A stretch of 64,000 nucleotides of DNA from Escherichia coli (GTDB lineage: Bacteria > Pseudomonadota > Gammaproteobacteria > Enterobacterales > Enterobacteriaceae): the NCBI RefSeq assembly GCF_013315695.1, contig NZ_CP054353.1, one strand, 5' to 3'. Below the pieces are notes generated by a model. That model was not told the origin of the DNA. It made no database searches and saw only the letters and a list, made by a program, of their open reading frames with translations. Position 1 is the stretch's first letter; each line of letters opens with the position of its first letter. Shown piece by piece: positions 3,280 to 57,925 of this stretch. Both the position numbers and the translations under genes were made by a program.

Positions 3280-4210
3280 CGAACGCTCCCAGACGTTTCA
3301 CGAACGCCAGGTACAGTGCGATGAGAACAATCGGCACCAGGGTGAATGCCGCCGCCATCGGCATATTGCCAATCGCTCCCTGCTGGGAATAAACCATATT
3401 GCCGATAAAATATCCTGGCGGGCCAACCAGTTGCGGGACGATAAAATCACCCAGTGTGAGTGAGAAGGTAAAGATAGAGCCAGCGGCAATACCCGGGATC
3501 GCCAGCGGCAACACTACATAGCGGAAAGTTTGTCTAGGACGAGCGCCAAGATCAGCCGACGCCTGCAACAATGACGGCGGCAAACGCTCCAGCGCTGCCT
3601 GCACCGGCAGGATCATGAACGGCAGCCAGATATAAAGAAACACGAGAAAGCGTCCCAGTCCTGACGTTGACAGCGTATTGCCGCCCACCGCCGGTAGTGT
3701 GAGAAACGCCGTGAGTAGTGGCTCCAGCCCAAGATGCTGTAAAAACCACTGCGCTACACCGTCTTTAGCCAGCAATAATGTCCAGGCATAGGCTTTAACA
3801 ATGTAGCTTGCCCACATGGGTAACATTACCGCAATGTAGAAGAACGCTTTCATTTTTCCGCTGGTATAGCGCGCCATATACCACGCCATTGGAAAAGCCA
3901 GAATGGCGCTGGCGATAGTGACTGCCACAGCCATAATCAGCGTGCGGAGAATGATGTCGTAATTCGCCGGATTAAACAGCGCACGGATATTGGCCAGCGT
4001 CAGTTCCGGCGTTACCGACATGGTGAAATCGTCAAAGGTATAAAAGCCCTGCCATAACAGCGTTAGCAGCGAGCCAAAATAGACAATGCCAAACCACATT
4101 AGCGGGCCAAGCAGCAGTAAAAACAGCCCCAGCCCCGGATTACGCCAGAAGAAACCGGAAACCTTACCCAGACCTGGACGTGAAGGTGATTGCAATACAT
4201 TCATCGCCAT
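3269..4210 (-). CDS. ydcU: ABC transporter permease (313 aa)
   Basis: Multi-pass membrane ORF; overlaps ydcV start; operon synteny. Confidence 0.85.
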
Positions 4211-5224
4211 TCACCTCTCCTCAACCAGCGGCACCATCACATCACGCGACCAGGAAACCATCACCTGTTGACCGGGCGTGAGCGTATTGGGTAAGTCTTC
4301 GCCCGTTACATTTGCCTGGCTAACCAGCAGTTTTTCTCCACCGCTAAGTTTCAGTTCAAAACGTGTGGCTGCCCCCTGATATTGCACCGCCTGAATCGTG
4401 CCATTAGCCTGCACTTCGCCGGGGATGTTGAAGCGGATATGTTCCGGTCGCAGGGCGAAGCTTCCCGTCATGCCACAAAGTTTGTCTGCCATCAGTGCAT
4501 CAAAAACATTCGATGTCCCGACGAACCCGGCAACAAACGGCGTGCGCGGGCGCATATAGAGATCGCGCGGGGAATCGACCTGCTCAATGCGTCCATTATT
4601 GAAAACCGCCACACGATCGGACATCGATAACGCTTCGCCCTGATCGTGGGTAACGAAGATAAAAGTGATACCGAGAGACTGTTGCAGCTTTTTCAGTTCC
4701 AGTTGCATCTGCTCACGCAATTTGAGATCCAGTGCGCCGAGCGGTTCATCCAACAGCAATACGCGCGGTTCATTCACCAGTGCTCTGGCAATAGCAACCC
4801 GTTGGCGCTGACCACCAGAAAGTTGTGACGGTTTACGTTGCTGTACAAACCCCAACGCCACTTTCTCCAGCGCCTCCTGCGCCATCGCATGCCGCTGCTT
4901 TTTATTCACGCCTTTGACCATCAGCCCATAGGCGACATTGTCAAGAATCGACATATGCGGGAATAGCGCGTAGTCCTGAAAGACAGTATTCACGTCCCGC
5001 TCCCACGGTGGCAGATTGCTGGCGGGTTTACCAAAGATAGAGATAGCCCCGCCGGAAAGTTGTTCGAATCCAGCAATCAGGCGCAGGCAGGTGGTTTTGC
5101 CGGAACCGGACGGCCCCAGCATAGAGAAGAACTCACCATCTTTTATCGCAATACTGACGCCATCTACTGCGCGCACGTCACCGTACAACCGTGAGACGTT
5201 GTCAAACTCCACTGCGTACGTCAT
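4211..5224 (-). CDS. ydcT: ABC transporter ATP-binding protein (337 aa)
   Basis: Walker A GPSGSGKTT, signature LSGGQRQR, Walker B LLLDEP in translation. Confidence 0.9.
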   Translation of the reverse strand: MTYAVEFDNVSRLYGDVRAVDGVSIAIKDGEFFSMLGPSGSGKTTCLRLIAGFEQLSGGAISIFGKPASNLPPWERDVNTVFQDYALFPHMSILDNVAYGLMVKGVNKKQRHAMAQEALEKVALGFVQQRKPSQLSGGQRQRVAIARALVNEPRVLLLDEPLGALDLKLREQMQLELKKLQQSLGITFIFVTHDQGEALSMSDRVAVFNNGRIEQVDSPRDLYMRPRTPFVAGFVGTSNVFDALMADKLCGMTGSFALRPEHIRFNIPGEVQANGTIQAVQYQGAATRFELKLSGGEKLLVSQANVTGEDLPNTLTPGQQVMVSWSRDVMVPLVEER

Positions 5225-5241
5225 AAAACACCCCAGCGAAG

Positions 5242-6387
5242 TTAGCGACCACCCATAATGGCAATGTAATCCTGCGTCCAGCGACTGTAGGGAACAAACT
5301 TGCCCCCTTCTGCTATAGGCGTTTTCCAGAAGGCGATTTTATCGAAATAGTTAAAACCGTTTGTTTCACAACCTTTCTCGCCTAATAACGGACTGGCTTT
5401 ACACCCTTGCGGCACTACTGGTAGCGAGCCAAACCAGGCCGCCACATCGCCCTGCACTTTTGGGGTTAATGACCAGTTCATCCATTTGTAGGCGCAAACC
5501 GGATGTTTCGCTTCGCTATGTAGCATGGTGGTATCAGCCCAACCGGTAACGCCCTCCTTCGGGAAAACGGTAGCGACAGGCTGGCCTTCGGCTTTCAGGG
5601 CGTTGGCCTGATAGGGCCATGCACTGGAAGCAACCACACCCTCGTTTTTGAAATCGCTCATTTGCACGGTAGTGTCATGCCAGTAGCGATGGATCAAACT
5701 ATGTTGATCGCGCAGCACTTTCAGCACCGCCTGGTACTGTTCTTCGGTGAGTTGATACGGATCGCTGATGCCCAACTGTGGCTGAGTGGCTTTAACGAAC
5801 AACGCAGCGTCCGCAATGTAGATAGGGCCATCATAAGCCTGAACGCGGCCTTTATTGCTCTTGCCGTCCGGCAGATTCTGCTCAACAAAAACCACTTGCC
5901 AGCTATTCGGCGGCGTCGGGAAGGTTTTAGTGTTGTACATCAGCAGGTTCGGCCCCCATTGGTAAGGTGTGCCGTAAACTTTGCCGCCAACGTTAAACCA
6001 GTCGCCTTTAACCACGCGCGGATCGAGCGCTTTCCAGTTGGGAATCAATGCGGTATTAATCGGCTGCACGCGTTTGCCCATAATCAGGCGCAGCGAGGCA
6101 TCGCCGGATGCCGTAACCAGATCGTAACCCCCTTTGGTCATCAGACTGACCATTTCATCGGAAGTCGCGGCGGTTTTCACATTCACCGCGCAGCCTGTCT
6201 CTTTTTCGAATTGCGTTACCCAGTCGTATTGTTTATCAGTTTGTCCGCGTTCGATGTATCCCGGCCAGGCGATAATATCCAGTCGCCCTTCCGGTTTATC
6301 TAAATTGGTAGGCGGTTCGGCGGCGTGAGCGGTCATTATTGTCATGGTGAGCGCACACAGGCTGCTGCGGGCAAATATCTTGCTCAT
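5242..6387 (-). CDS. ydcS: Periplasmic substrate-binding protein of polyamine-type ABC transporter (381 aa)
   Basis: Signal-peptide-like N terminus; operon synteny with ydcTUV. Confidence 0.85.
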   Translation of the reverse strand: MSKIFARSSLCALTMTIMTAHAAEPPTNLDKPEGRLDIIAWPGYIERGQTDKQYDWVTQFEKETGCAVNVKTAATSDEMVSLMTKGGYDLVTASGDASLRLIMGKRVQPINTALIPNWKALDPRVVKGDWFNVGGKVYGTPYQWGPNLLMYNTKTFPTPPNSWQVVFVEQNLPDGKSNKGRVQAYDGPIYIADAALFVKATQPQLGISDPYQLTEEQYQAVLKVLRDQHSLIHRYWHDTTVQMSDFKNEGVVASSAWPYQANALKAEGQPVATVFPKEGVTGWADTTMLHSEAKHPVCAYKWMNWSLTPKVQGDVAAWFGSLPVVPQGCKASPLLGEKGCETNGFNYFDKIAFWKTPIAEGGKFVPYSRWTQDYIAIMGGR

Positions 6388-37444: not shown

Positions 37445-38049
37445 TATCTTTCAGCACTCATCAGGAGCACACTTCGACAACGATTAATCGCAGTCCAGAG
37501 AAGCAAAATTGAAGCAATGCTCCATAAAAGATTATTCCATTGCATCCACTGTGGATAAATGGCAACAGCCAGCCCCCACAACCCAAATATTAACGCACGA
37601 TCGCTTTTGCCGAATGGACCGGCATAACTGCGAATACCGTTAATCGTCTGCGCGAGTAAACCGCAAAACTCAGTTAATATGGTGCAAAATAACATGAGTA
37701 TTACGAGTGATGCGTTACTTTCCGGTAAAAATAAAAACGGTAAATAAAGCGCAATATCGGAAATAACATCGCCAGTTTCATTCAAAATCGCCCCAAGACG
37801 TGTTTGCTGATTGCACTCACGCGCCATCATGCCATCCAGCGCATTGAGCGCCATACGGATAAAAAGCACGATAGGCAATAGCAAAAAGAGGATGGGTTGT
37901 GCCACCAACATCAACAGCAATCCGGTAAGAAGAGAAAGCGCCAGTGCAGCAAGAGTGATGTGATTCGCTGTAACATGGTGCTTATTAAGCCAAAACATCG
38001 TCGGCCTTAACAGCGACTGAAAGAGCGGTTTTATCTGGTAGAGCGTCAT
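37444..38049 (-). CDS. ynbA: CDP-alcohol phosphatidyltransferase-family membrane protein (201 aa)
   Basis: Start set at MTLYQIKPLF; motif DGMMARE... consistent with CDP-alcohol phosphatidyltransferase. Confidence 0.8.
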   Translation of the reverse strand: MTLYQIKPLFQSLLRPTMFWLNKHHVTANHITLAALALSLLTGLLLMLVAQPILFLLLPIVLFIRMALNALDGMMARECNQQTRLGAILNETGDVISDIALYLPFLFLPESNASLVILMLFCTILTEFCGLLAQTINGIRSYAGPFGKSDRALIFGLWGLAVAIYPQWMQWNNLLWSIASILLLWTAINRCRSVLLMSAER

Positions 38050-38219
38050 TATCAATCCTTGATAATTCGGTTTGCGCTATGGTGCATCAATTCCCCTGAC
38101 GGAGATATCGCAACACGCCGCTTCATTAAAAATTCAGAATATATCAAGGTATTGGGGACTCACCGTCAGGAATGATTATCCCCAATAAATCAAGTGGTTA
38201 AAAATTATTACGCTGTTAT

Positions 38220-38597
38220 TCAATACAACTCATTAAGTTTTCTCATCGCTTGTTCCCGTATTGCGCGCGTCTTACCGTTAAGCGCCAGCTGGCGGACTAA
38301 ATCCAGTTCAGGGTTAACAAGCTCTAACGCCAGCAAAGGATCACGTTTCAGCCTCGCCTTCAATACATCAACTGGGAAACGGGGATCATTCATCGCCATA
38401 ATCCACCACTCGGGATCAATTTCTGCCGCTAGTGCCGCAGACGGTGTATGGCGATTGTTAAGTGCGCCGAACTTGAAAAATGTAAGATTGCTTTTCGCCA
38501 GCGTACTCCACCATATACGATCCGGTTGTTTTGCCAGTTTATCCAGTTGCGCTAATGCATCGGAGTCAAGTGCATAATAAACACGTAACGCTTCGTT
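38220..38597 (-). pseudogene. ydbD: 3' remnant (125 codons) of a gene truncated by IS1; ydbD by synteny
   Basis: Minus-strand frame open from the IS1 junction (38597) to stop at 38220, with no start codon. Confidence 0.5.
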
Positions 38598-38652
38598 GGT
38601 GATGCTGCCAACTTACTGATTTAGTGTATGATGGTGTTTTTGAGGTGCTCCA

Positions 38653-38928
38653 GTGGCTTCTGTTTCTATCAGCTGTCCCTCCTGTTCAGCTACTGACGGG
38701 GTGGTGCGTAACGGCAAAAGCACCGCCGGACATCAGCGCTATCTCTGCTCTCACTGCCGTAAAACATGGCAACTGCAGTTCACTTACACCGCTTCTCAAC
38801 CCGGTACGCACCAGAAAATCATTGATATGGCCATGAATGGCGTTGGATGCCGGGCAACAGCCCGCATTATGGGCGTTGGCCTCAACACGATTTTACGTCA
38901 CTTAAAAAACTCAGGCCGCAGTCGGTAA
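38653..38928 (+). CDS. insA: IS1 InsA
   Basis: Translation identical to copy 1 InsA. Confidence 0.9.
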
Positions 38929-39350
38929 CCTCGCGCATACAGCCGGGCAGTGACGTCATCGTCTGCGCGGAAATGGACGAACAGTGGGGCTATGTCGGGG
39001 CTAAATCGCGCCAGCGCTGGCTGTTTTACGCGTATGACAGGCTCCGGAAGACGGTTGTTGCGCACGTATTCGGTGAACGCACTATGGCGACGCTGGGGCG
39101 TCTTATGAGCCTGCTGTCACCCTTTGACGTGGTGATATGGATGACGGATGGCTGGCCGCTGTATGAATCCCGCCTGAAGGGAAAGCTGCACGTAATCAGC
39201 AAGCGATATACGCAGCGAATTGAGCGGCATAACCTGAATCTGAGGCAGCACCTGGCACGGCTGGGACGGAAGTCGCTGTCGTTCTCAAAATCGGTGGAGC
39301 TGCATGACAAAGTCATCGGGCATTATCTGAACATAAAACACTATCAATAA
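38847..39350 (+). CDS. insB: IS1 InsB reading frame
   Basis: Translation identical to copy 1 InsB. Confidence 0.9.
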
Positions 39351-39505
39351 GTTGGAGTCATTACCACTTGAACCGATAATAAACGCAGAAATTCTATTTT
39401 GTAGCTCATTGTTGCCTCCTGTGTGAATTGTTCGAATCTACCAGGCTGCGATGAAAGAAGTCGTGTAGTAGAGAGCTATACCCGCAACAAGCGGGGCAGA
39501 CGTTC

Positions 39506-51516: not shown

Positions 51517-52431
51517 ATGTACTCAATAAAAAAAGTAACCATGCTCTTGGGGTGCCTCGCCCTCACCTGCTCGATCGCATTTCAGGCGAGTGCAACTGAA
51601 AAATTCAAGGTCATTACAACATTTACCATCATCGCAGATATGGCCAAAAACGTGGCTGGAGATGCTGCAGAAGTCTCATCCATAACCAAGCCCGGTGCAG
51701 AAATTCATGAGTATCAGCCTACCCCTGGCGATATTAAACGTGCGCAGGAGGCACAACTGATTCTCGCCAATGGTATGAATCTGGAATTGTGGTTCCAACG
51801 CTTTTACCAGCATCTTAATGGGGTTCCAGAAGTAATTGTCTCTTCGGGTGTGACGCCAGTAGGGATCACTGAAGGCCCCTATGAGGGCAAACCTAACCCC
51901 CATGCCTGGATGTCGCCAGATAATGCTCTGATTTACGTCGATAATATTCGTGATGCGTTGATAAAATACGATCCGGCAAATGCACAAACCTACCAACGTA
52001 ATGCCGATACTTATAAAGCCAAGATTACCCAAACCCTTGCCCCCCTGCGTAAGCAGATTGCTGAACTCCCTGAGAATCAGCGATGGATGGTCACCAGTGA
52101 AGGGGCTTTTTCTTATCTCGCACGCGATTTGGGGCTAAAAGAGCTTTATCTGTGGCCGATTAATGCCGATCAACAAGGCACGCCGCAGCAGGTACGTAAG
52201 GTTGTTGATATGGTGAAGAAAAATCATATCCCGGCAGTCTTTAGCGAGAGTACGATTTCCGATAAACCAGCGCGTCAGGTTGCGCGTGAAACCGGCGCGC
52301 ACTACGGCGGTGTACTCTATGTCGATTCCCTGAGCACAGAAAACGGCCCGGTACCTACGTATATCGACCTTCTGAAGGTTACTACCAGTACGCTGGTACA
52401 GGGAATTAAAGCCGGGAAAAGGGAGAAATAA
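51517..52431 (+). CDS. sitA: Periplasmic Mn/Fe-binding protein of Sit ABC transporter (304 aa)
   Basis: Signal peptide plus metal-binding lipoprotein-9-like sequence; first gene of a four-gene transporter operon. Confidence 0.85.
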
Positions 52432-53258
52432 TGATGCAATCTGCGGGCATTGTCGTTAATGATGTTACTGTCACCTGGCGTAACGGGCACACAGCACTGC
52501 GCGATGCATCCTTCACAGTACCAAGTGGATCTATTGCCGCTCTGGTTGGGGTAAACGGTTCCGGAAAATCGACGTTGTTTAAAGCGATTATGGGATTTGT
52601 GCGTCTGACCAGCGGAAAGATATCTGTTCTGGGTATTCCCACGCGACAGGCGCTACAGAAAAACCTGGTTGCCTACGTCCCTCAGTCAGAAGAGGTTGAC
52701 TGGTCATTTCCTGTACTAGTGGAAGATGTGGTGATGATGGGCCGCTATGGGCACATGGGTATGTTGCGTATAGCCAAAAAGAGGGATCGTCAGATTGTCA
52801 CCGATGCGCTGGAACGTGTCGATATGGTGGATTTTCGCCATCGACAAATCGGCGAGCTTTCCGGTGGACAAAAGAAACGCGTCTTTCTGGCGAGAGCGAT
52901 TGCACAGCAGGGTGATGTGATCCTGCTGGATGAACCTTTTACCGGCGTTGATGTGAAAACCGAAGCGAAAATCATCAGCCTGTTGAGGGAGTTACGCGCG
53001 GAAGGCAAGACGATGCTTGTCTCAACGCACAATCTCGGCTCAGTCACGACATTTTGCGATTATACGGTCATGGTCAAAGGCACCGTCCTGGCAAGCGGGC
53101 CGACAGACACCACTTTTACAGCCGAGAACCTGGAGCTGGCTTTTAGCGGCGTACTGCGCCATGTCACACTTAACGCCTCGGAAGAAAGCATTATTACTGA
53201 CGATGAACACCCTTTTGTGGCACATCGACCGTCAGCGGTGCAGAGGGAAGCAAGATGA
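52431..53258 (+). CDS. sitB: Sit transporter ATP-binding protein (275 aa)
   Basis: Walker [10 protein letters not shown], signature LSGGQKKR, Walker B ILLDEP. Confidence 0.85.
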
Positions 53259-54112
53259 ACGTGCTACTGGAACCCTTCAGCTATGAATATATGCTCAATG
53301 CGATGTGGGTCTCGGCGATGGTCGGCGGTCTCTGCGCTTTCCTGTCATGCTATCTGATGCTAAAAGGCTGGTCGCTGATTGGCGATGCGCTGTCGCACTC
53401 TATTGTCCCGGGTGTTGCGGGGGCATATATGCTGGGGCTTCCGTTTTCTCTGGGAGCCTTCTTTTCCGGCGGACTGGCAGCGGGCAGCATGCTGTTTCTT
53501 AACCAACGCACTCGCTTAAAAGAAGATGCCATCATCGGCCTGATCTTCTCCTCCTTTTTTGGCCTGGGGCTGTTTATGGTGTCATTGAACCCGACATCCG
53601 TGAACATTCAGACCATCGTCCTAGGCAATATTCTGGCAATCGATCCGGCGGATATCCTGCAACTCACTATCATTGGCATTCTCTCGATCATCGTGCTTTT
53701 TTTCAAATGGAAAGATCTTATGGTGACCTTTTTCGACGAGAATCACGCCCGTGCTATTGGATTGCATCCGGGCAGATTAAAAATCCTCTTCTTCACCCTG
53801 CTGTCGGTTTCGACCGTTGCGGCGCTGCAAACGGTTGGTGCCTTTCTGGTGATCTGTCTGGTGGTGACTCCCGGTGCAACAGCATGGTTGTTAACCGATC
53901 GTTTTCCCCGCCTGCTCATAATTGCTGTAACTATTGGCAGTGTAACCAGTTTCCTCGGCGCGTGGGTCAGTTACTTTCTGGACGGCGCGACAGGTGGAAT
54001 CATCGTGGTGGCGCAGACACTGCTGTTTCTTTTAGCATTTGTATTTGCGCCCACCCATGGGCTTTTGGCAAATCGTCGGCGTGCGCATAAAGCGCTGGAG
54101 GATCGCTCATGA
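53255..54112 (+). CDS. sitC: Sit transporter permease (285 aa)
   Basis: Multi-pass membrane ORF overlapping sitB end. Confidence 0.85.
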
Positions 54113-54966
54113 TGGCATTATTACTGGAGCCACTGCAGTTCACCTTTATGAGTCACGCACTGCTGATTTCACTGGTAGTTTCCATACCCTGTGCGCTGCT
54201 GTCGGTCTTTCTGGTCCTGAAAGGTTGGGCACTGATGGGTGACGCGATGAGTCATGCGGTTTTTCCTGGCATCGTGCTTGCCTGGATTCTGGGGTTACCT
54301 CTGGCTACAGGGGCATTTATCGCCGGAGTATTCTGCGCGGTGGCGACGGGATACCTGAAAGACAACAGCCGAATCAAGCAAGATACAGTGATGGGGATTG
54401 TTTTTTCTGGCATGTTTGCCGCAGGTCTGATCTTGTATATTGCAGTCAAACCAGACATACATCTTGACCATATTCTTTTCGGCGACATGCTCGGGGTAAC
54501 CATCGGCGATATAATCCAGACGATGATTATTGCCGGGCTGGTTACACTTGTTATTAGCGTAAAATGGCGGGATTTTTTGCTGTTCAGCTTTGATTATCAA
54601 CAGGCGCAGGTAAGCGGTTTGCATACGCGATGGCTGCATTATGGGCTGCTGTGCATGGTTTCCCTGACCATTGTGGCGACGCTGAAAGCAGTAGGTATCA
54701 TTCTCTCCATTTCTCTGCTCATTGCGCCTGGCGCCATTGCGGTACTCCTGACACAACGCTTTCATATTGCACTCCTACTGGCGACTGGCATATCGGTAAT
54801 AGTCTCAATGACTGGTGTTTGGCTGTCCTTTTTTATCGACAGCGCACCCGCTCCGACGATTGTCGTCTTATTCGCGGTTGTGTTCATCATGACGTTTACC
54901 GTTATCAGTTTCAACGCACGCACAAAGGGAAACGCTCATAGACAGGATCTGTTATCCCCCAATTAG
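54109..54966 (+). CDS. sitD: Sit transporter permease (285 aa)
   Basis: Multi-pass membrane ORF overlapping sitC end. Confidence 0.85.
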   Translation: MMALLLEPLQFTFMSHALLISLVVSIPCALLSVFLVLKGWALMGDAMSHAVFPGIVLAWILGLPLATGAFIAGVFCAVATGYLKDNSRIKQDTVMGIVFSGMFAAGLILYIAVKPDIHLDHILFGDMLGVTIGDIIQTMIIAGLVTLVISVKWRDFLLFSFDYQQAQVSGLHTRWLHYGLLCMVSLTIVATLKAVGIILSISLLIAPGAIAVLLTQRFHIALLLATGISVIVSMTGVWLSFFIDSAPAPTIVVLFAVVFIMTFTVISFNARTKGNAHRQDLLSPN

Positions 54967-55417: not shown

Positions 55418-56233
55418 TTGACAAGCAGGAGTAATACTTTGGACATAAGAAAAGATTTGGAATCAGTAGCCCAATATATAAGTAGACTGTTATCGATAGG
55501 GTACGAATTTAGCCGTTTTGATAAAGACTGGGTCCATTTAAAAAATGAAGAGGATTTTCGTTTTATTTCAAGAATACCATTTGCAACACGGAATAAAGTG
55601 GAAGCAGTATATGCGGAAGGCAGAGATATGGCACTTTATATGTCTGATGAGTTACTATCCATTAATAGTGATTTCAGTAAATTTCCAACGTTGACAGCTA
55701 TTATCGAAAGATTCAAGGACACTTGGGTTTATGGTAATTATGATTCGGAAGTGCCAAATATAGCTAAAAAAACATGCGAAGAAAATGCAGTTCAGCTTTG
55801 GTCTGTAGAACAGATGTGTTCCTTATTCAAAAAGCAAGAACAACTATTAGCAGCAGTACGTATCACATTGCAGATGCTACAAGATAGTGACCTATACAAG
55901 ATGGAGAATGGTTTACCTCTTATGAAACAAGAAGCTAATATTCATGTCAGTGGAATTTCCGGTTCTAGTATCAATATACATTCTTCAGGTGCTACGGCAA
56001 CTACTACGACAAATTATAATGAGCCCACAATATTTAATGAAATGATTGAGGCAATAAAATCGAAAAACTTTGATGGCGCGACAGAATCACACCTTATAGA
56101 TAATGTACAGGCACTGGCAGCCAGTCACCAAAGCGGCTGTTTTAAAGAAGCATATAAGGACTTTATTAATAATGTATCTGCACACATTACAGTATTTACT
56201 CCATTTCTTGCTGGCATATCATCTTTACTATAA
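55418..56233 (+). CDS. Hypothetical protein, AT-rich orphan ORF (271 codons from TTG; a TTG at 55439 has better Shine-Dalgarno spacing)
   Basis: Long open frame in a visibly low-GC segment; AGGAG at 55427..55431; no family recognised; Ser/Thr-rich linker SGISGSSINIHSSGATATTTTN. Confidence 0.55.
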   Translation: MTSRSNTLDIRKDLESVAQYISRLLSIGYEFSRFDKDWVHLKNEEDFRFISRIPFATRNKVEAVYAEGRDMALYMSDELLSINSDFSKFPTLTAIIERFKDTWVYGNYDSEVPNIAKKTCEENAVQLWSVEQMCSLFKKQEQLLAAVRITLQMLQDSDLYKMENGLPLMKQEANIHVSGISGSSINIHSSGATATTTTNYNEPTIFNEMIEAIKSKNFDGATESHLIDNVQALAASHQSGCFKEAYKDFINNVSAHITVFTPFLAGISSLL

Positions 56234-56778
56234 AATAAGTGACAGATACATTAATACATAACGAAAAATCTTTTTAGCTACTCATTCATATCAATAGTGC
56301 CCTACCATAGGGCACATTATTCGTGGAACTCGTTTATGACAAAAGAATTTTGATGGTCTGCCTGATGCAACAGATATAATTCTGGGAGTGTTGAGTAAGA
56401 GTATTCACCGGCGCTCAACACAAATGCCAGCAAGCACGAGAAAGAGCAGGTAAGCCTGAGTGTTCAGGAAATGTTTGAAAAGGCTAATATGTGGCTGGTT
56501 TCAGATTAAACGCCTTGAACCGTCATATTACTTAAGTACAATCCGCCTAGACTAGCAATCATTCAATAGTAGCACTATCGAGCGCTCGCCAGTCGAGCGC
56601 AATCATGCTCCTTGCATACGGCGTGCAGCATATCACAAAACGATTACGCCATGACGGACTGCAGGCTACTCAATATCTGGCTCGATTAGCGTATTGGCAT
56701 GATTTAACAGACCCCGGCGCTTATTCCCAGCAACCTGAAGCGGCACCTCTTCCTGTGTTGCGTTTACAACTCCCTTTT

Positions 56779-57087
56779 TCACCCACGATTAACCAACAGC
56801 CAGACCAGCAGACAAGCCACCACCGGCACAGAAAAATCCATCAGGCTTGCCACATCCCACACGCGCGGATCAAAACCACCCCACCACGGCATATTCATAC
56901 GCTTGCCATGCCCGAACATTTCAATCCAGCGATATTCTGCCTGGGTATGTTCACGAGCAATGAAGAACGTACAACCGGCTATCGCCCCGTAAGCCCAGTT
57001 TCCGGTAAAAAGACCAACCAGTACCTGCGCAGCCACAGCACAAAGTGCATGAAGGAAAGGTGTTATATCCATTTTCATCCTACCCAA
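56779..57087 (-). CDS. Hypothetical small membrane protein (102 aa; may start at MKMDITPF, 57075)
   Basis: Two hydrophobic segments (AVAAQVLVGLF..., VPVVACLLVWLLV); overlapping plus-strand 161-aa ORF is low-complexity. Confidence 0.5.
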   Translation of the reverse strand: MGRMKMDITPFLHALCAVAAQVLVGLFTGNWAYGAIAGCTFFIAREHTQAEYRWIEMFGHGKRMNMPWWGGFDPRVWDVASLMDFSVPVVACLLVWLLVNRG

Positions 57088-57148
57088 TAAAACGAGGCGC
57101 TCGGCCCCTTAATATTATTTAGACGCAAGCGTCGGTAATGACTCCAAC

Positions 57149-57652
57149 TTATTGATAGTGTTTTATGTTCAGATAATGCCCGATGACTTTGTCATGCAGC
57201 TCCACCGATTTTGAGAACGACAGCGACTTCCGTCCCAGCCGTGCCAGGTGCTGCCTCAGATTCAGGTTATGCCGCTCAATTCGCTGCGTATATCGCTTGC
57301 TGATTACGTGCAGCTTTCCCTTCAGGCGGGATTCATACAGCGGCCAGCCATCCGTCATCCATATCACCACGTCAAAGGGTGACAGCAGGCTCATAAGACG
57401 CCCCAGCGTCGCCATAGTGCGTTCACCGAATACGTGCGCAACAACCGTCTTCCGGAGCCTGTCATACGCGTAAAACAGCCAGCGCTGGCGCGATTTAGCC
57501 CCGACATAGCCCCACTGTTCGTCCATTTCCGCGCAGACGATGACGTCACTGCCCGGCTGTATGCGCGAGGTTACCGACTGCGGCCTGAGTTTTTTAAGTG
57601 ACGTAAAATCGTGTTGAGGCCAACGCCCATAATGCGGGCTGTTGCCCGGCAT
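57149..57652 (-). CDS. insB: IS1 InsB reading frame
   Basis: Translation identical to copy 1 InsB. Confidence 0.9.
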
Positions 57653-57846
57653 CCAACGCCATTCATGGCCATATCAATGATTTTCTGGTGCGTACCGGGT
57701 TGAGAAGCGGTGTAAGTGAACTGCAGTTGCCATGTTTTACGGCAGTGAGAGCAGAGATAGCGCTGATGTCCGGCGGTGCTTTTGCCGTTACGCACCACCC
57801 CGTCAGTAGCTGAACAGGAGGGACAGCTGATAGAAACAGAAGCCAC
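57571..57846 (-). CDS. insA: IS1 InsA
   Basis: Translation identical to copy 1 InsA. Confidence 0.9.
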
Positions 57847-57925
57847 TGGAGCACCTCAAAAACACCATCATACACTAAATCAGTAAGTTGGCAGCATCAC
57901 CCCCGGCGTTAAGGGGAGAGATAAG

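Follow-up and report, generated by a model that had tools for sequence, protein, structure and literature searches.

The window analysed here is a 64,000-nt stretch of Escherichia coli DNA, and the ORF listing places in it, on the minus strand, an open reading frame of 102 codons that runs from a TTG at 57087 to its stop at 56779. The ORF faces a plus-strand "orphan" ORF at 55418..56233, confirming the convergent arrangement reported in an earlier note on this sequence. That note had also described the two as adjacent, but a frameshifted dinI-like pseudogene and a total of 545 nt separate them. On its other side, upstream of the small ORF, lies a copy of IS1. The features of the locus are listed below, with the source of each in brackets.

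55439..56233, plus strand: the "orphan" ORF, which has 264 aa if begun at the RefSeq ATG and 271 codons if begun at TTG 55418 (ORF listing, RefSeq)
56297..56315, plus strand: terminator-like hairpin after the 264-aa ORF (consensus scan)
56323..56509, plus strand: frameshifted DinI-like pseudogene between the convergent ORFs (RefSeq annotation of the identical sequence)
56779..57072, minus strand: coding sequence of the 97-aa predicted membrane protein, stop codon included (ORF listing, PHROG, RefSeq, dN/dS, AlphaFold2)
57073..57087, minus strand: in-frame 5-codon extension to the TTG, with TAGGA at 57078..57082 (sequence, PHROG and RefSeq starts)
57094..57108, minus strand: terminator-like GC hairpin with a T run, placed after the old fibre stop and before the ribosome-binding site that serves the 97-aa gene (consensus scan, alignment to strain 7/2)
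57115..57133, minus strand: 19-nt remnant, the 3' end of a 346-aa Peptidase_S74 tail-fibre gene, with its stop codon at 57115..57117 (alignment to strain 7/2)
57134..57901, minus strand: IS1, 768 bp, with insA and insB codirectional with the 97-aa gene (ORFs, RefSeq IS1A family transposase, ends and flanks read)

The protein had been given 102 residues in the earlier note. The ORF of 102 codons exists, but its true start is most likely the ATG at 57072, which would give a protein of 97 aa (56779..57072), since the PHROG profile alignment begins at residue 6 of the ORF and not at the TTG, the RefSeq annotation of the identical sequence starts at this ATG (97 aa, WP_001405873.1), and a Shine-Dalgarno motif, TAGGA, can be read in the sequence 5 nt 5' of it. 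The 5-codon extension at 57073..57087 is probably not translated.

The IS1 junction and the history of the locus

The window region is 100% identical to the corresponding part of E. coli MSB1_4I, where the order is ompN, uspF, sitABCD, the 264-aa hypothetical gene, the dinI pseudogene, the 97-aa gene, IS1, ydaF, sieB, kilR, racC, recE and recT. In 100 other genomes, strain 7/2 among them, the same left part runs on into an intact lambdoid prophage, and in 7/2 the map order is the 97-aa gene, the 346-aa tail-fibre gene, a 93-aa gene, more fibre genes, lom, J and the rest of the prophage. The 346-aa fibre protein of this strain matches Pfam Peptidase_S74 with 52.8 bits. Homology between the window and the 7/2 prophage stops exactly at the IS1 end, between 57133 and 57134, and beyond IS1 the window carries a Rac-type early region, against a Qin-type one in 7/2.

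The 9-bp flanks of IS1 are unlike each other (gcaagcgtc and cccggcgtt) and show no target duplication, so the junction is the product of a deletion or rearrangement and not of a simple insertion. As the alignment to 7/2 shows, IS1 has replaced everything upstream of the 97-aa gene save 19 nt of the fibre gene and has joined the gene to the Rac-type early region. Between the element and the TTG there are 46 nt, and between it and the ATG at 57072 there are 61; the earlier note had given 47 bp.

The earlier note had also proposed that IS1 could supply or disrupt the promoter of the gene. The second half of this proposal is the one that holds: because the rearrangement removed the upstream fibre gene together with the entire late operon, the 97-aa gene would have lost its native source of transcription. 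As for the first half, a consensus scan found no sigma-70-like site upstream on the minus strand, and a hybrid promoter formed with the IS1 end was looked for at the junction, by eye and by the same kind of scan, and discarded. The 97-aa gene is now probably silent, or expressed solely through read-through from IS1. The hairpin at 57094..57108, between the old fibre stop and the ribosome-binding site, has a perfect stem in strain 7/2, with a single G/A difference between the two sequences at 57095.

The phrog_1443 family and its predicted fold

The 97-aa protein belongs to phrog_1443, as given by a full-length profile match (E 8.6e-59, 196.7 bits, ORF residues 6-101 against profile positions 1-96 of 97) and by its occurrence in phage and prophage genomes. 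The protein of the window is identical to RefSeq WP_001405873.1, a hypothetical protein, and 100% identical genes are annotated in E. coli MSB1_4I and 7/2; WP_000355360.1, also hypothetical, falls in the same PHROG, as does gp24 of phage 21 (CPT_21_24), a "putative membrane protein" that occupies the same slot at the end of the tail-fibre module as the window gene. What distinguishes the window gene from these catalogued members is its context and not its protein, with the fibre genes lost through IS1 and extra cargo before sitD.

Of 5,426 complete E. coli genomes, 1,911, about a third, have the gene, often in several copies and at 3,869 places in all; it is also found in 67-75 phage records, phage 21 among them, and in 356 IMG/VR stretches, the last figure coming from a query with the alignment of closer relatives (alignment A1) and covering close E. 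coli relatives only. An exhaustive HMMER search gathered relatives from across Proteobacteria, which at 50% identity fall into 331 clusters and are all about 90-130 aa long, and a species-level genome scan found the family in Gamma-, Beta-, Alpha- and Deltaproteobacteria. When 44 distinct E. coli alleles were each compared with the window allele, the mean dN/dS was 0.13, a value indicating purifying selection. The phrog_1443 match, the copy number in E. coli, this dN/dS and the 331 clusters together show that the 97-aa gene is real and intact rather than a chance ORF. We consider its identity and its genomic history almost certain. As a finding, the ORF itself is ordinary, being an already catalogued hypothetical prophage protein.

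Scans of the window protein and 69 relatives with Pfam, NCBIfam and PADLOC returned sub-threshold, hydrophobicity-driven matches only, for example to the PhoR N-terminal domain. Against the 97-aa protein, the PADLOC-DB defence models gave 0 families at E <= 1 and toxin HMMs gave no match, and a literature search found no paper or experiment on the phrog_1443 family.

The description of the product as a small membrane protein is borne out by both hydropathy and the AlphaFold2 helices. Two hydrophobic segments had been counted in it, and hydropathy does give two, an N-terminal stretch of 40 residues and a C-terminal one; the AlphaFold2 model, however, obtained from a 69-sequence alignment with a pLDDT of 97.2 and a pTM of 0.82, places helices at residues 4-23, 26-53 and 74-96, so that three membrane-associated helices are predicted rather than two. 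Residues H8, R40, E41, Q44, A45, E46, R58, W72 and P83 are invariant or near-invariant family-wide. The polar loop between helices 2 and 3 (REHTQAEYRW…MPWWGGFD) is nearly invariant, and among the closer relatives the block IAREHTQAEYRWI…NMPWWGGFD is invariant. The C-terminus consists only of N-R-G.

Averaged over the family, the number of K+R residues is 0.58 in the N-terminus, 0.10 in the turn between helices 1 and 2, 5.38 in the loop (residues 40-73) and 0.59 in the C-terminal tail. Because positive charges are concentrated in the loop, the positive-inside rule predicts a topology with the N-terminus and the loop in the cytoplasm and the C-terminus outside. The annotators of phage 21 gave a different topology for gp24, with 2 TMDs and both termini inside. 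A Foldseek comparison of the pLDDT-97 model with the PDB yielded no fold relative and a profile search of PDB sequences no relative of the protein, and in a fold search of BFVD only two short uncharacterised phage proteins matched.

Genomic position of the family and the neighbouring cargo ORF

In intact phages, the 97-aa gene is the last gene of the receptor-binding-protein module, directly 3' of a tail-fibre or tailspike gene, and this upstream gene most often carries the self-cleaving chaperone domain Peptidase_S74. In E. coli-type prophage loci from IMG/VR, an S74-type fibre ORF, in its 346-aa or 234-aa form, ends no more than 150 nt upstream at 70 of 80 loci, and the arrangement of phage 21, with a 93-aa phrog_1361 gene directly upstream, is found at 7 of the 80. 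Across species-level loci, J, Stf or S74 proteins are encoded within 5 kb upstream at 13 or more of 39, a lower bound obtained by BLAST, and S74 itself is upstream at only 7 of 49 diverse loci. An exclusive tie to Peptidase_S74 fibres was considered and set aside, as other types of receptor-binding protein lie upstream in phage 21, Gally and Comamonas.

The slot recurs in phages of different build. In lambdoid phages it is that of the Stf modules. In the P22-like phage Gally, the family gene sits between the tailspike gene and int and is preceded by a terminator-like hairpin and a weak promoter-like site; in the P2/VP882-like phiHAP-1, it is flanked by the tail-fibre assembly gene and the sheath gene, in the position that the conversion gene fun(Z) takes in P2; and in a Comamonas prophage it follows a gpJ of 2,520 aa. 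In HP1-like prophages of Aeromonas media and Leclercia, the gene starts directly at the stop of a Peptidase_S74 fibre gene or overlaps with it. Among virulent or large phages, the family gene comes after a spike with Tail_spike_N and S74 domains in E. coli phage 6947, between two spikes in Cobetia phage Carin-5 and before a beta-helix spike in the Aeromonas jumbo phage ACP1, and in a Desulfovibrio MAG it adjoins an S74 fibre gene. In the lambdoid and HP1-like prophages, the gene is packed behind the late genes with gaps of 0-42 nt, and no promoter of its own was detected there.

Stand-alone copies also exist outside phages. In several Aeromonas species, an intact copy occupies one and the same non-phage position in conserved synteny, in the order pirin, family gene, RIO1 and two lipid A acyltransferase genes, in a neighbourhood that is otherwise heterogeneous. 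In sphingomonads the family gene follows ligA or a DAHP synthase gene, and in Leclercia it follows LysR or GNAT genes.

This wider sampling bears directly on the plus-strand neighbour, since the convergent pair had been suggested to form a functional unit. Such a two-gene system, with the 97-aa protein and the product of the 271-codon ORF acting as toxin and immunity or as effector and partner, is hardly credible in view of the co-occurrence counts, which refute it. The two genes do adjoin in 103 E. coli genomes, but these share one arrangement that is at least 99% identical throughout. The 271-codon ORF is present in 104 genomes, all at least 99% identical and a single lineage, compared with 1,911 for the 97-aa gene, which is found about 37 times more often without the ORF than with it; and among 30 E. 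coli prophage loci for which over 1.5 kb of downstream sequence was available, a single one has the ORF. Conversely, the 264-aa protein belongs to a separate family, found in Pseudomonas, Vibrio, Enterobacter, Stutzerimonas and others, with a taxonomic range unlike that of the 97-aa family, and none of 7 loci of its homologues (three homologous proteins in other taxa, one locus being in Enterobacter mori) has a relative of the 97-aa gene. Base composition differs as well, at about 35% GC for the ORF and 50-53% (about 52%) for the 97-aa gene, and the dinI pseudogene and the 545 nt that keep the two apart also argue against a pair. The earlier note had named two observations that would speak against pairing, no co-occurrence with the neighbour and a confident assignment to a common prophage protein family, and both are what we found, the family being phrog_1443.

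No 271-codon ORF intervenes in phage 21 or E. coli Nissle, where the 97-aa gene has sitD as its convergent neighbour, and elsewhere the DNA downstream of the gene contains pinR, a reverse transcriptase with a SLATT protein, other hypotheticals or sitDCBA. Intact DinI-like genes are found at the same prophage end in UTI89, strain 410 and PhiR63_1. Taken together, the comparison indicates that the 264/271-aa ORF and the dinI pseudogene are cargo inserted between the 97-aa gene and sitD, and that the 271-codon ORF is unrelated AT-rich cargo and no partner of the 97-aa gene.

Candidate roles of the 97-aa protein

Our preferred reading is that the 97-aa protein would be an envelope-level accessory factor that travels with the receptor-binding cassette and may keep related phages from adsorbing to or entering the host cell, through superinfection exclusion or conversion, a role that would exclude both lysis and any action with the 271-aa ORF. 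The slot after receptor-binding genes, its match with known conversion slots, the precedent of exclusion genes and the stand-alone copies are what suggest it; PMC8594841 suggests that genes for superinfection exclusion lie alongside receptor-binding genes, 3' of gpJ homologues. Stand-alone chromosomal copies persist, which also disfavours a function in virion assembly only or in lysis only. Two observations point the other way: that the gene is packed so closely after late genes, and that no promoter for it was detected, speaks against a moron expressed in the lysogen, and the predicted location of the conserved loop is the cytoplasm, whereas adsorption is blocked elsewhere. Furthermore, since the gene sequence is almost invariant while the receptor-binding proteins encoded upstream vary, the protein cannot be a receptor-specific blocker. 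By analogy with known systems, a mechanism of the exclusion or conversion type is possible but doubtful, whereas the account as a whole, comprising identity, IS1 history and an envelope accessory role, is the best explanation we have and is held tentatively, somewhat short of an even chance. About a quarter of the weight is left for explanations outside those considered.

Known phage proteins in comparable positions resemble the 97-aa protein in part. Cor and Llp sit in the outer membrane as lipoproteins and mask FhuA. Like the 97-aa gene, the genes of Cor (phi80, N15, T1) and Llp (T5) encode small envelope proteins, adjoin a receptor-binding gene and are inherited as part of a cassette (PMC8594841 and general knowledge). 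The likeness is one of gene position only, as the 97-aa protein is a predicted polytopic inner-membrane protein that stays invariant beside varying receptor-binding proteins. It carries no lipobox: the candidate H8-A9-L10-C11 has Leu at -1, and C11 varies (A, I, V) in relatives. P2 fun(Z) shares the slot of the phiHAP-1 family gene, but it is 528 aa long and on the opposite strand. The slot between tailspike and integrase that holds the Gally gene is occupied by gtrABC in P22 and by oac in Sf6; GtrA, GtrB, GtrC and Oac, however, are larger, belong to known families and have no sequence relationship to the 97-aa protein. HK97 gp15, a moron-encoded inner-membrane superinfection-exclusion protein, is likewise small and encoded in the tail gene region of a lambdoid phage, but it has 62 aa and its gene lies between the tail chaperone and tape-measure genes. 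Homology to gp15 was rejected (hhalign probability 0.3%, 4 aligned columns). The Tfa and gp38 chaperones were also discarded as relatives, there being no Pfam or PHROG chaperone match and the 97-aa protein being predicted to be membrane-embedded and not soluble, as was the gp27 chaperone of Alteromonas phage V22, which is soluble and unrelated.

A role as accessory to tail-fibre maturation would have the protein act late in infection on the upstream fibre or spike, its cytoplasmic loop tethering, orienting or processing S74 fibres or the released chaperone domain. The S74 fibre ORF within 150 nt at 70 of the 80 E. coli prophage loci fits this, as do the S74 adjacency in Aeromonas and Leclercia (abutting or overlapping), in phages 6947 and Carin-5 and in the Desulfovibrio MAG, the position between two fibre or spike genes in Carin-5 and ACP1, and the prediction that the conserved loop is in the cytoplasm, where fibres fold. 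However, the upstream gene is of another kind in phage 21 (an Stf with a lectin-like end and the phrog_1361 gene), in Gally (a tailspike) and in Comamonas (gpJ), and intact stand-alone copies are kept at non-phage chromosomal loci. To our knowledge, no membrane step in fibre assembly has been described. Moreover, S74 fibres bring their own chaperone, as discussed in PMC7289586, and we regard the maturation role as rather unlikely. We consider it more improbable still that the protein is a small envelope-modifying enzyme or inhibitor acting in lysogenic conversion, whose His/Arg/Glu cluster would bind or alter a lipid-linked intermediate and thereby change the surface glycans that the fibres recognise. 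Here the residues H8, R40, E41, E46, R58 and D79 are suggestive, being invariant or nearly so in the closer relatives of alignment A1, all but D79 conserved family-wide, and located at the ends of helices 1, 2 and 3 in the AlphaFold2 model; the gene also occupies classical conversion slots, between tailspike and int as in P22-like phages and between the tail-fibre assembly gene and the sheath gene as in P2-like ones, and two lipid A acyltransferase genes lie near the Aeromonas chromosomal copy. Nevertheless, a protein of 97 aa would make an unusually small enzyme, the searches revealed no enzyme family or fold resembling it, conservation of H42 and D79 does not extend to the wider family, and the rest of the Aeromonas neighbourhood is heterogeneous.

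The earlier note had suggested a holin-like or small effector membrane protein, and we judge a holin or lysis-timing function very improbable. The protein is small, has three predicted helices and is encoded in a late operon, one of 69 family members has a weak Phage_holin_8 match (E 0.0036), and there are familiar parallels: in phage T7 the holin gene 17.5 comes right after the tail-fibre gene 17, and lambda S has three TMDs. The 97-aa protein is similar in size to the class I holins and T7 gp17.5, sharing three helices with lambda S and the position after a fibre gene with gp17.5. Against this, the HMM comparison with Pfam, PHROGs and NCBIfam gave no match of the 97-aa protein to any holin family, and in the loci read the gene never adjoins an endolysin or spanin gene, its neighbours being tail-fibre genes and cargo. 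The prophage of strain 7/2 has a holin of its own, in a full lysis cassette (essD, ydfR, rrrQ, rzpQ) about 27 kb away. In addition, the 34-residue invariant polar loop is unlike holins, the charged C-terminal tail of class I holins seems to be absent, and the chromosomal copies in Aeromonas are conserved, which would be unexpected for a lethal pore former. In the Comamonas prophage a lysis cassette was sought next to the homologue, and the three genes that follow it have no lysis annotation.

Returning to the envelope accessory reading, its interest lies in the family and not in the ORF of the window, which carries little weight, since it was stranded by an IS1 rearrangement and its pairing with the 271-codon ORF is an accident of cargo insertion. 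It is conceivable, although we would not call it likely, that phrog_1443 is a previously unrecognised component of phage receptor-binding cassettes, a three-helix inner-membrane protein with an invariant motif on the cytoplasmic side, domesticated as a stand-alone chromosomal gene in Aeromonas and sphingomonads and acting by a mechanism not yet described. If so, phrog_1443 would be inherited together with fibre and tailspike genes, above all those with Peptidase_S74, across siphoviruses, podoviruses, myoviruses and virulent phages, and it would provide either a general barrier against phage entry, set at the inner membrane, or a membrane-dependent step of fibre maturation. The linkage to receptor-binding proteins together with an invariant motif that has no known relative makes a modestly interesting lead for experiment, and the family is a reasonable target, as it is common in E. 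coli, has no Pfam family or structural relative and is linked to receptor-binding proteins in unrelated phage lineages. A known role would improve the annotation of a very common prophage gene and would inform the engineering of tail-fibre cassettes.

Fibre-module neighbours of the 97-aa gene

In lambdoid fibre modules, the Stf gene is accompanied by a phrog_1361 gene, whose 92-93-aa product may be an assembly factor of the fibre, and in the phage 21 arrangement this gene lies immediately 5' of the 97-aa membrane-protein gene (phrog_1443). On the other side, BL21(DE3) and UTI89 both carry the remnant of a tail-fibre assembly gene 20 nt 3' of the 97-aa gene. This remnant suggests that an older Stf-Tfa module gave way, via recombination, to the present fibre module, whose last gene is the 97-aa gene. 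The corresponding features, in the coordinates of each comparison locus (L), are:

L002 10866-11147 and L003 5710-5988, phrog_1361 gene
L010 3814-3924 and L011 3814-3933, tail-fibre assembly gene remnant, N-terminus missing

In the window, we also observed an ORF on the strand opposite to the 97-aa gene, which it overlaps completely:

56605-57090, + strand, 161-codon ORF

With its high content of Pro, His and Gln, this is most likely a shadow ORF and no gene.

The IS1 junction and the Aeromonas chromosomal copies

The IS1 copy at window 57134-57901 forms the junction between the final 19 nt of a tail-fibre gene and an early region of Rac type (44-aa ORF, ydaF, sieB, kilR, racC, recE and recT), and it lacks a target-site duplication, its flanks being gcaagcgtc versus cccggcgtt. 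The structural, lysis and regulatory parts of the prophage are all gone from this IS1-joined arrangement. In E. coli strain 7/2, the left part is otherwise identical to that of the window and leads into a prophage whose early region is of Qin type.

Outside phages, several Aeromonas species carry an intact family member at a single syntenic chromosomal locus, with a pirin gene on one side and RIO1 together with two lipid A acyltransferase genes on the other:

L005, L101-L103 and L108, around 6001-6309, Aeromonas chromosomal family member

This chromosomal copy has an Arg-rich C-terminal tail, which the phage copies lack.

Cargo at the prophage end

The prophage end next to the 97-aa gene carries further genes, listed here with those of two related prophages:

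Window 52431-54966, sitB, sitC and sitD
Window 55439-56233, 264-aa ORF, AT-rich (~35% GC)
Window 56323-56509, DinI-like pseudogene, frameshifted
L013 (strain 410) 3896-5795, reverse transcriptase and SLATT-domain gene, directly 3' of the 97-aa gene
L142 (strain 7/2) 37730-39369, Kiwa KwaB-like gene, inside the prophage

Intact DinI-like genes occupy this end in the related prophages of UTI89, strain 410 and PhiR63_1. The prophage in the window carries the sitABCD iron/manganese transporter as cargo, and so do phage 21 and the E. coli Nissle prophage; according to one paper, 70% of the lambda-like phages of E. coli from the infant gut have it (PMC6969025). Defence-type cargo is also borne by this prophage family, in strains 410 and 7/2; the strain 410 copy of the 97-aa gene is inactivated.

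The 264-aa ORF, which converges on the 97-aa gene, had no Pfam family, and its PADLOC hit, the defence candidate PDC-M14B, was weak (E 0.0017). Homologues occur in Pseudomonas, Vibrio and Enterobacter, some within prophages, and UniRef gives a distant one the name 'AbiTii domain-containing'. The 264-aa ORF could be a defence-type gene carried as stand-alone cargo.
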